Assembly: GCA_022822905.1 (NCBI GenBank)
Contig: JAJDYE010000016.1
Location: 152,731-216,730, forward strand
DNA length: 64,000 nucleotides
Direction: 5' to 3'
Origin: Acidimicrobiia bacterium
GTDB lineage: Bacteria > Actinomycetota > Acidimicrobiia > Acidimicrobiales > Bin134
Part shown: positions 33,940 through 36,915 of the stretch, piece after piece
Position numbering within the stretch: the first letter of the stretch is position 1
How the letters are laid out: every line of letters begins with the position of its first letter
The notes under the pieces: model-generated
The model's database searches: none
The model's input: the letters and a program-made list of their open reading frames with translations, nothing else
What the model was told of the DNA's origin: nothing
Made by a program: the position numbers and the translations under genes

Positions 33940-36915
33940 ATGGCCGCTCTCTCCAGTGACAGCCCCGAACGCCGTATCGCTGAGTTGGTCGAAATGGTTC
34001 GTCACCACGATCAGCGGTACCACGCCGACGATGCTCCCGAGATCCCCGACGCTGACTATGACCTGCTCAAACGAGAGTTGCTGGACCTTGAGGCTGCCTA
34101 TCCAGCACTGATTCGACCCGACTCCCCCACCCAAACAGTCGGGGCCGATCCGTCTACTCTGTTTGCTCCGGTGGAGCATCGGGTGCCGATGATGTCTTTG
34201 GACAACGCTTTCGACCGGGGGGAACTCAATGCTTGGGCTGATCGGGCCCGGCGGCGTCTGGCGGCAGATCAGGGTCAGAAGGTTATTGCAGAGGCCAGTG
34301 GCCAGGGTTTGCTGTTGCTTTCAGACGGTACGGATGGTGAGGCAGACAGCGAAGCCGTTGCCGCGGAGCCTGATGGGATAGGGCGGGCTGGCGATGAAGT
34401 TACTGGCCGCACTACACCTCAAAAACTCCCGCGGGAACTTGGCACGTTGGTCTGCGAACTCAAGTTCGACGGGTTGGCAGTATCACTGCGATATGAGAAC
34501 GGCGTCCTGGTACAGGCTGCCACCAGGGGAAACGGGCGGATGGGTGAGGACATCACAGCCAACGCTCGGACGATCCAGTCAGTCCCCCACCGGTTGCCTG
34601 CCTATGCGCCCGCAGTACTAGAGGTACGGGGTGAGGTTTACATGCCCCTTGATGCCTTCGACGACCTCAACAAGCAGCAAGATGAGGAGGGGAAGCCCCG
34701 CTATGCCAATCCCCGCAACACAGCGGCAGGCTCGCTCCGGCAAAAGGATCCATCGATCACCGCCACCAGAGGACTATCAATCTGGTGCTACCAAATCGGA
34801 GAGATCCAAGGGGGCCCCACACTGGAAACCCACAGCGACACGTTGGAGTACCTAAAGAGCCTGAACCTGCCGGTGAATCCCAAGGCCAAAACGGTAAGCA
34901 CCATTGACGCAGCCTGGAAATTCATCGAGCAGTGTGAAGCCGACCGCCACAACCTCCCCTACGAGATCGACGGCGCGGTCATCAAGATCGACCGTCTGGA
35001 TCTCCAACTAGAACTCGGAACCACCAGTCGCGCGCCTCGCTGGGCAATCGCATACAAACTGCCTCCTGAAGAGCAAAACACCAAGCTGCTGGACATTCAT
35101 GTTTCCATCGGCAGCAAGGGCAAGGCCACCCCATTTGCAGTGTTGGAGCCCGTGTTCGTGGGAGGGTCCACAGTTGCTATGGCCACCCTGCACAACGAGG
35201 ACCAAGTGAGGTCCAAGCGGGTCCGGCCAGGCGACACGGTTGTGGTGCGCAAAGCCGGTGATGTCATACCCGAGGTTGTGGGACGAGTCGACGACGACCG
35301 ACTATCCAACCTACCTGAGTGGGAATTCCCCACGACTTGCCCTTGCCCGCACAAACAGCCCTTGGTCCGCACCGAGGGTGACGCCGCGCACTACTGCCGC
35401 TTCGATGGCTGCCCTGAACAGCTCCGAGGCTGGATCGAGCATTTCGCCGCCCGCAACGCCCTGGATATCGAACACCTGGGTGAACAGCGAGTCCGCCTGT
35501 TCATCAAGCTCGGACTCATCAAAGATGTAAGCGACATTTACGACTTGGACCCCAAGGGCTTTGACCTGCTGAGAGAACTCAAAGGGGCGACATGGAAGGC
35601 CACCCTCGACGATGGCACCGAGTACTACCTGGACACCGGTCTGGTAGCAGCCCTGTCACAGCTCAATCTCAAGCGCCGCGACGATCTGACTGCGGCCATC
35701 GAACTCTTGAAGCAGCGCCCGCTCGCCGACTTATTGGTAGGACTCAAGATCGATGGGCTGGGAGCCACCACCGCCGAGGCTCTGGCCCAGAATTTCGGGC
35801 ATCTTGACCAGATCATCACCGCCCCGGTGGATGATCTGGCTCAGGTCAAGGGGGTCAGGCTCGCGGTTGCCAATGCCATTAACGCCCATTTCGAGCCAGA
35901 AAAGACTCAGGTGGCAATCAGCAAGCTGCGCGTCGCGGGTGTCAATCTGGGAAACTCGTCCTCTTTCAAGACCAGCAAACCGACTCTGGCAAATGCCAAG
36001 GCACTCCCCTCAGAGCCGTCTCAAATTCGTCAGCCCGGCAAAGAGTTGTCGTCTGAACAGGAAGAAGATCTGAAGCGAATCATCAGATTCGTCGCGCCAA
36101 ATCCCAAGCGAACGTCCGATAAGGACAGAGACCAGAGCAAAGATCAGGCACTCGGCGAGCAGAAGGCCAGACTCCTGTTCCATCTCGGCCTTATCGCCGA
36201 TTTCGGCGATCTGTTCGATCTGGATCTTGGATTGCTTGACCCGCCTAGGGAGTCGACATGGAGCAATGTGATCAGCGATGAAAGCAGAGACCACGACAAG
36301 TACACCCTGCAGGTCGACGACATAGCCCAACTCAGCAGCTTCGCTGAAGTGTCGATTTCCAACCTAGGGAAAGCCATCGAGGCTTCCAAAGAGCAACCGC
36401 TAGCCCGCCTGCTGGTTGGACTTAACATACGGCACTTGGGGGATACCTACTGCGAAATCCTTGCTGATGCCTTCGGAGACTTGGACGGCATCATGAAGGT
36501 CAAGCAGGACGAATTGGCCGAGGTAGATGGGATCGGGCCGATCATCGCGGCTAGCGTCCATGAATTCTTCGACCGCAAGGAAAACCAGGAGATCATCAAC
36601 AAACTCCCCGAAAAACTGCGAAATACCAACAGCGGCGACACCGAAGACCACAAGGTCGAAGCACTTCCCCAGACCTTGAGAGACATGATCATTGTGGTCA
36701 CCGGCGGGGTGGAGGGCTACACCCGAGACGAGGTGGGCGCGGCCATCAAGGCCCGGGGCGGCAAGTCGCCTAGCAGCGTGTCATCCAAGACCACCGCCCT
36801 GGTGGTGGGCGAGAACCCCGGCGCTTCCAAGCTGGATAAGGCCGAGAAGCTGGACATTCCGATCCTCAATGAGGCACAGTTCCAGCACCTCATCGAGACC
36901 GGGGAACTACCATGA
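33940..36915 (+). CDS. ligA: NAD-dependent DNA ligase, atypically long (991 aa) with duplicated HhH module
   Basis: Domain Ia covers aa 1-70. The adenylation motif is CELKFDG (K175). The OB fold is followed by the 4-Cys Zn finger CPCPHKQ...[11 protein letters not shown]. Two HhH modules lie at aa ~510-670 and ~737-893. The C-terminal BRCT is [25 protein letters not shown]...[16 protein letters not shown]. Confidence 0.85.

Follow-up and report, generated by a model that had tools for sequence, protein, structure and literature searches.

The question raised by this locus is whether the replicative DNA ligase of a bacterium can carry its DNA-binding domain twice, and what such an enlargement means for the enzyme. 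The gene concerned, ligA, lies in a stretch of 64,000 nucleotides (the window) of contig JAJDYE010000016.1 from an Acidimicrobiia bacterium, a reef-invertebrate-associated actinobacterium. All positions given below are those of the window, and the features whose coordinates are written with two dots lie on the + strand. The NAD-dependent ligase LigA, known from every textbook, is a target for antibacterial drugs, and the arrangement of its domains is considered essentially fixed (PMC7470946). An earlier reading of the DNA, called here the original prediction, placed an open reading frame (ORF) for a NAD-dependent ligase of 991 amino acid residues at 33940..36915, and the ORF is there with exactly these limits. 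The explanation favoured overall, which we consider fairly probable, is a long-allele LigA with an old duplication of its helix-hairpin-helix (HhH) domain, a form that has been recombined and in which the doubled domain would strengthen the grip on DNA. The architecture and history of the protein are held with high confidence; for the DNA-grip mechanism, which draws on analogy, the chances seem to us about even.

The 991-residue protein scores 837 bits against the NCBIfam LigA equivalog model (cut-off 369) and 155.9 bits against the LigB model, far under the cut-off of 498. Domain Ia, which binds NMN/NAD+ and gives the enzyme its specificity for NAD+, occupies residues 1-75 (33940..34164) in an alignment made with phmmer, in which residues 7-109 correspond to residues 2-104 of E. 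coli LigA (E = 7.9e-26). The Pfam Nlig-Ia model remains below its cut-off (22 vs 27 bits). In an alignment of 43 long forms, i.e. LigA proteins of the same genus with two HhH modules, Y27, D37 and D41 are invariant and Y40 is nearly invariant. The nucleotidyltransferase (adenylation) domain, residues 76-378 (34165..35073), is interrupted by an insertion and is matched by PF01653 in two stretches (294.7 bits). The adenylation lysine K175 (codon 34462..34464) of motif I, CELKFDG, aligns with E. coli K115, and K175, D177 and G178 of the KxDG signature are invariant. The OB-fold domain follows at residues 379-456 (35074..35307; PF03120, E = 6.6e-28, 96.8 bits).

The four-Cys zinc finger spans residues 467-491 (35338..35412), with C467, C469, C486 and C491 invariant in the 43 long forms. 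The unusual spacing C467-x-C469 ... C486-x4-C491 explains why the Pfam ZBD model scores below its cut-off here (15.2 vs 25.8 bits, E = 0.021). The same C-x-C ... C-x4-C arrangement, in place of the usual C-x2-C ... C-x5-C, was also seen in the short form P0095 and in the distant lineage of P0107. The BRCT domain closes the chain at residues 909-991 (36664..36912; PF00533, E = 4e-13). Thus all the canonical parts named in the original prediction (Ia, KxDG at K175, OB fold, four cysteines and BRCT) are present, the cysteine spacing being unusual. Where the family has a single four-motif HhH domain before BRCT, this protein has two HhH modules, and this doubling is the sole departure from the LigA family architecture.

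The genome to which the window belongs is 95.65% complete. It contains one PF01653 locus and one ligA; a second canonical ligA was looked for in this genome and none was present, and no ATP-dependent ligase (PF01068) was found in it. Ku was not found in any of 40 genomes of the genus. Since the 991-residue protein is the only ligase detected in the genome and its catalytic and NAD-binding residues are intact, we infer that it must be the replicative and repair ligase, sealing nicks in a NAD+-dependent manner.

The evidence for the doubling is as follows. The Pfam families HHH_2 and HHH_5 each match the protein in two stretches, so domain searches do not detect only one module; the short-form control P0095 has one HHH_2 stretch. 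The two copies are 38% identical over 171-172 residues (E = 4e-22 and 8e-23) when compared after splitting the protein; a self-BLAST of the whole protein masked the repeat beneath the identity match. The phmmer alignment threads E. coli LigA through residues 168-536 and then skips to residues 788-985, a pattern expected of a tandem repeat. The tandem duplication of the whole HhH module, as originally proposed, is therefore real. No similarity between copy 1 and copy 2 was detected at the DNA level, which rules out a recent duplication and indicates an old one.

Each repeat unit begins with a helix that precedes the first motif HhH1 (residues 492-503, just after the zinc finger, in copy 1 and 705-718 in copy 2), and the repeat ends with the tail before BRCT. 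Unit 1 comprises residues 492-673 (35413..35958) and consists of the leading helix, a canonical HhH1 and a diverged remainder, as judged from the profile match, the alignment of the copies, the AlphaFold2 model and the module tree. Unit 2 comprises residues 705-896 (36052..36627) and consists of the leading helix, a disordered stretch and a near-canonical module, as judged from Pfam together with the same alignment, model and tree. The two copies had been correctly recognized beforehand, and only their extents are refined here. The joining linker of about 65 residues was likewise correctly placed, at residues 674-736, except that it includes a confident helix, 705-718, which opens unit 2. The linker region is disordered in its first part (residues 674-704, 35959..36051) and again at about 719-736. 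In the AlphaFold2 model the predicted local distance difference test (pLDDT) is under 50 for residues 674-694, and the stretches predicted as disordered are 674-694 and 723-735. The whole linker region is basic (isoelectric point 9.5), and its helix contains a short invariant motif.

Each copy carries an insert of about 25-30 residues in the hairpin of the second motif, HhH2. In copy 1 it lies within residues 537-575 (35548..35664), with predicted strands 551-555 and 561-565 and the near-invariant W552; in copy 2 it lies within residues 762-801 (36223..36342), with strands 773-777 and 787-791 and the near-invariant W774. The two beta-hairpin inserts are homologous by alignment, and all 72 single-module relatives lack them. 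The hairpin glycines were scored at the four positions aligned with E. coli G455, G489, G521 and G553. All four are retained in the single modules of the genus, three in copy 2 (HhH1, HhH3 and HhH4) and two in copy 1 (HhH1 and HhH3). Copy 1 has lost the glycines of HhH2 and HhH4, the last being replaced by Arg in 81% of the sequences. Copy 1 has a median net charge of -4, compared with -13 in copy 2 and -14 in the single modules. The stem length on the module tree is 0.165 for copy 2 and 0.648 for copy 1. Taken over the whole module, copy 2 is thus closer to the consensus, as first suggested; however, in the first 45 or so residues copy 1 is the more canonical.

The long form was found in about 44 protein clusters from independent assemblies, and all 44 have open frames. 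The identical 991-residue protein is P0002, a protein-collection cluster of two member sequences, and a 97% identical long-form protein is present in another assembly. P0004, a 96% relative, occurs in one NCBI assembly and in one independent Logan assembly. Within the genus, ten genomes assembled in one or two contigs have the double form as well, and sister species with closed genomes are among them. From the source names of homologous proteins, the genus is Ca. Poriferisocius (Acidimicrobiia), a metagenome-assembled genome (MAG) of which is abundant in coral metagenomes (PMC12625765). Exactly one ligA is present in each of 40 species genomes of the genus; it is of the double-HhH form in 19 and of the single form in 21. 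Among 401 genomes sampled across the class and representing 177 genera, full-length matches to the segment specific to the long form were confined to this genus. Six further genomes of this order (G414, G306, G118, G334, G388 and G230) have long ligA frames too, but all six proved to be single-HhH and were rejected as double forms.

Module trees covering 44 copy-1 and 44 copy-2 sequences bear on the origin of the duplication. All 44 copy-1 modules form one clade with support of 100, and the copy-2 modules form one clade with support of 98; in a more careful tree the supports are 98/91 for copy 1 and 98/99 for copy 2. Copy 2 is nested among the single modules of the genus on its short stem, and copy 1 falls just outside them on a long one. 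The two clades and their placement show a single duplication event in the genus. The converse, in which short forms are deletion derivatives of long ones, was ruled out: 72 of 72 short forms have no beta-hairpin insert, a canonical HhH2 hairpin and all four glycines.

The present distribution of the two forms does not follow the ligase core. Mapped onto the core tree, the long/short state has to change 22 times, and strongly supported branches force at least 10 of these changes. On the tree of the shared C-terminal segment 3 changes suffice. The long form P0001 and the short form P0095 are 99-100% identical up to residue 522 and diverge beyond it. The DNA of the window and of the short-form genome G009, which encodes P0095, is about 95% identical to nucleotide 35549, about 73% over 36340-36896, in the shared 3' part of the gene, and again 95% from nucleotide 37630. 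With a second short-form genome, G037, the identity is 75-81% in the 5' half of ligA, and from nucleotide 36373 (residue ~811) one block of 94% identity extends for 5.4 kb into the downstream genes. The synonymous divergence (dS) between two long alleles is ~0.05 in copy 1, 0.20 in copy 2 and 0.32 in BRCT. These identity blocks delimit a long-allele-specific segment of about 270 codons (35550..36372) between two recombination breakpoints, the place of which is taken by about 18 codons in short alleles. The window ligA is in this comparison a three-part mosaic with breakpoints near residues 536 and 811. The segment is flanked by homology to short alleles, and it is recombinable in or out. Homologous recombination has in this way moved it among species.

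Both copies are clearly under purifying selection, with many positions invariant. Across the 19 long alleles the median ratio of nonsynonymous to synonymous divergence (dN/dS, a rough value here) is 0.10 for the core, 0.19 for copy 1, 0.18 for copy 2 and 0.15 for BRCT, and it is 0.33 for the N-terminal insertion and 0.34 for the linker, residues 674-736.

The two-HhH arrangement is not confined to this genus. When 1.84 billion representatives were searched exhaustively with a single generic HhH module, two-module proteins ranked at the top. Architecture mapping and Pfam confirmed the order Ia, nucleotidyltransferase, OB, zinc finger, HhH, HhH, BRCT in P0107, P0110, P0124 (934 residues), P0131, P0133, P0183, P0215, P0187 and P0256. 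Among them P0183 comes from Ca. Foliamicus sp. (Gammaproteobacteria) and P0215 from an Acidobacteriota MAG. In P0245 and P0135 two HhH modules are followed by a C-terminal RNase_T exonuclease, which replaces BRCT; otherwise the layout is that of the genus long form. The cores of these proteins belong to other phyla, and the two copies are 26-41% identical to each other. In the one case inspected, P0107/P0110, the first copy is again the more diverged and has lost the glycine of the fourth hairpin, as in the genus long form. However, P0107 and P0110, the sole double forms inspected for it, have no beta-hairpin insert. Approximately unbiased (AU) tests of a single against a multiple origin across phyla rejected neither (p = 0.22, 0.74; p = 0.12). 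The long form is thus spread over about half of the genus species and occurs in other phyla as well, so that it is not unique to the window gene. The double-HhH proteins are public and are annotated simply as LigA. In line with the original prediction, which knew of no such enzyme, a literature search turned up no published account of a LigA with two HhH modules. A search of the literature on the ecology of Ca. Foliamicus and Ca. Hopanoidivoransaceae also found nothing relevant.

Two observations were made alongside this search. P0122 (933 residues, from an ENA contig of 37,659 bp) has five or six LigA-type HhH modules in tandem, followed by a BRCT domain, and no ligase core; possibly it descends from LigA and acts as a free-standing DNA-binding protein of the poly-HhH kind. 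At the locus of P0107 (L045), ligA stands in the classical actinobacterial neighbourhood of ligA, a gene for a PASTA protein, gatC, gatA and gatB. The surroundings of the window ligA, unlike those of L045, are variable and contain many small toxin-antitoxin-like pairs.

The structure was predicted by AlphaFold2 from the alignment of the long forms. The full-length model has a mean pLDDT of 75.6, with both HhH modules at about 80-90. For the two-module segment alone the pLDDT is 82.3 and the predicted template modelling score (pTM) is 0.77. Two independent beads, each of about 165 residues, would not reach such a pTM, and the value suggests that the two modules pack as one unit. The top fold match in a Foldseek search is E. 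coli LigA (2OWO, E = 1.2e-50), and the search found no solved structure with the two-module arrangement. An array of (HhH)2 domains of the topoisomerase V type was considered and rejected; Foldseek gives 8df9_B and 4gfj probabilities of only 0.12 and 0.07, and both copies group with LigA HhH modules.

These features allow us to propose how the doubled domain may act. Copy 1 would take the canonical clamp position beside the zinc finger, and copy 2 would pack against it, in accordance with the predicted packing. Both copies and the basic linker together would form an enlarged DNA-binding surface, giving a longer or stronger grip on the duplex around the nick, with the catalytic chemistry unaltered. 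As the original prediction supposed, the doubling may alter the way in which the enzyme encircles DNA. Copy 1 evolved faster and became less acidic by about 10 charge units, and copy 2 stayed near the ancestral module. The enlarged surface is proposed because copy 1 follows the zinc finger as the canonical DNA-binding domain does and is less acidic, and because the linker is basic. Multiplied HhH domains are known from other DNA enzymes: topoisomerase V has 12 tandem (HhH)2 domains (PMC9489208), and Phi29 polymerase tolerates more salt and performs better when fused to HhH (PMC8313265).

Several points weigh against this proposal. The second hairpin is broken by the insert in both copies, and copy 1 is without the fourth hairpin glycine. 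Wang, Nair and Shuman are said to have found in 2008 that the hairpin glycines are essential in E. coli LigA. Because of the lost glycine, the interrupted hairpin and this reported requirement, copy 1 may bind DNA poorly or differently. The predicted packing of the two modules depends on a single pTM value. The dN/dS ratios come from saturated dS (>1). In addition, closely related species thrive with the short form, so that any benefit of the long form would be conditional.

The main rival to the DNA-grip proposal is that only copy 2 binds DNA in the clamp, the degenerate copy 1 being a spacer or a docking platform for a partner such as a DEDDh-BRCT exonuclease, a clamp or a repair factor. The loss of two of the four hairpin glycines in copy 1 and its long branch agree with such a role, and a candidate partner is at hand. 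A DEDDh (RNase_T) exonuclease with a BRCT-like tail is encoded at 32977..33933 (PF00929, E = 3.6e-24), 6 nucleotides before ligA, and is fused N-terminally to LigA in the relatives P0031, P0037 and P0043. Its orthologue is present in 12 of 19 long-form and in 2 of 21 short-form genomes (Fisher p = 0.0007, uncorrected for phylogeny or linkage), and an unrelated lineage joins RNase_T C-terminally to a double-HhH LigA (P0245, P0135). However, exonuclease fusions exist with short forms too (P0064, P0071), and in several long-allele genomes the exonuclease gene has an in-frame stop or is missing. Copy 1 itself stands directly after the zinc finger, where canonical LigA has its DNA-binding HhH; canonical modules are more acidic than copy 1, which is also constrained as strongly as copy 2. 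A spacer or docking role is regarded as unlikely.

The long-specific segment might also be a neutral or mildly selfish in-frame passenger, which spread by recombination across the region from ligA to the downstream HAD hydrolase gene with no gain of function. Its patchy occurrence in about half of the genus species would fit, as would the frequent recombination at the locus, the insertion hot spot in the gap downstream, and the fact that short-form species manage without a second ligase. This explanation seems to us quite improbable in view of the purifying selection on both copies across 19 species with many invariant positions, the open frames in all 44 long forms, the comparable double forms kept in other phyla with copies only 26-41% identical, and the confident folding of the modules in the AlphaFold2 model. 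Pfam found only HhH families in the segment and no nuclease or unrelated domain, no search having been aimed at intein motifs. An intein or mobile element as such found no support in the Pfam search or in the model, the segment being predicted to fold as HhH helices and a beta-hairpin; its first residues are DPKGF and its last FAEVS, with ISNL coming next, and it shows neither the splicing-junction residues nor the Hint or endonuclease fold of an intein. Finally, the window comes from a metagenome-assembled genome in 42 contigs, and the 991-residue form could in principle be an artefact of assembly or binning, in which two ligA alleles of co-occurring strains were joined into a chimera. This has a negligible probability. 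The recurrence of the form in many independent assemblies, with P0002 identical, and in the ten single- or two-contig genomes rules it out, and the two copies, at 38% identity and with no DNA similarity, are too divergent for a mis-join of two alleles.

It is useful to compare the window LigA with known enzymes. Canonical LigA, as in the structures from E. coli (2OWO, 5TT5), Thermus filiformis (1DGS) and M. tuberculosis (3SGI), has the same order of domains: Ia, nucleotidyltransferase, OB, zinc finger, HhH and BRCT. The E. coli protein is the top match (phmmer E = 6.6e-140), with the catalytic and NAD-binding residues conserved. The chain lengths differ, 991 residues against about 670, and the window protein departs from the canonical one in its two HhH modules, the beta-hairpin in each HhH2, the C-x-C zinc finger and a disordered acidic loop of 58 residues before motif I. 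The short-allele protein P0095 (741 residues, locus L003) is found at the same locus with the same neighbours, and has the same N-terminal insertion and zinc finger. It differs in having a single canonical HhH domain, which retains the four hairpin glycines and lacks the beta-hairpin insert. The window LigA is resembled by topoisomerase V of Methanopyrus kandleri and by the HhH-polymerase chimeras in that HhH is multiplied in tandem on a DNA enzyme. Their catalytic domains and the origin of their modules are unrelated to those of LigA, and the resemblance is one of analogy, not homology. LigB of Enterobacteria is another natural variant of the LigA architecture, a reduced form without BRCT and two of the zinc-finger cysteines. 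Unlike that reduced paralogue, the window LigA has been expanded, and no second ligase accompanies it in its genome.

A second irregularity of the protein is the N-terminal insertion, residues 110-167 (34267..34440), with a net charge of -7, which fills the alignment gap between E. coli residues 104 and 108. The low-complexity insertion before the adenylation lysine had thus been rightly noticed. It does not, however, lie strictly between two domains, but inside the nucleotidyltransferase domain, in its N-terminal part, and some 7 residues separate it from motif I. Disorder is predicted for it (pLDDT 25-29), and its length varies from 0 to 60 residues over 39 genomes of the genus with no dependence on the HhH state. 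It measures 34-60 residues in 24 of these 39 genomes, is a stub of 2-10 residues in 3 and is absent in 12. The insertion opens with a semi-conserved stretch (RARRAAEEASGQGVLLL, consensus), followed by a hypervariable tail rich in Asp, Glu and Gly.

The neighbouring genes also vary. The exonuclease orthologue has an in-frame TGA in G016, G021, G026 and G032. The 5' end of the exonuclease gene (window 32952-33073) has a counterpart, 85% identical, at positions 6953-7074 of L003, a second copy about 2 kb upstream in that relative. Between ligA and the HAD hydrolase gene (37648-38295) there is a gap, at 36916-37647, into which insertions have occurred repeatedly in the genus. About 20 genomes have nothing in it and 9 have an insert of 2.6-2.8 kb, the state of the gap being independent of the ligA form. 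In the window the gap contains two small overlapping ORFs of 81 and 130 residues (37013..37608), which have no Pfam match and are not parts of the ligase; their proteins are 100% identical to those in the same gap of G037. In L004 the insert is a gene for a protein of 895 residues with no Pfam match.

A much wider role for the long allele can be imagined, although we consider it very improbable. The extra HhH would be an exchangeable accessory cassette passing between species, and perhaps phyla, of reef-invertebrate symbionts, kept as a long/short dimorphism that changes the ability of the ligase. The enlarged domain might hold two duplexes or a longer piece of DNA, so that LigA and the linked 3'-5' exonuclease could repair gapped, mismatched or broken ends without Ku or an ATP-dependent ligase.

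It is an unusual kind of polymorphism that an essential gene should gain and lose an in-frame segment of about 270 codons by recombination. Sister species with long and short alleles on 99% identical catalytic cores provide a clean natural experiment, and the effect of the extra module on affinity, footprint, salt tolerance and substrate range is therefore directly measurable. Natural HhH-augmented ligases may also be of practical interest, like the HhH-polymerase chimeras. For the LigA family, a doubled DNA-binding domain retained by selection in the sole ligase of the cell shows a clamp architecture more flexible than has been assumed.

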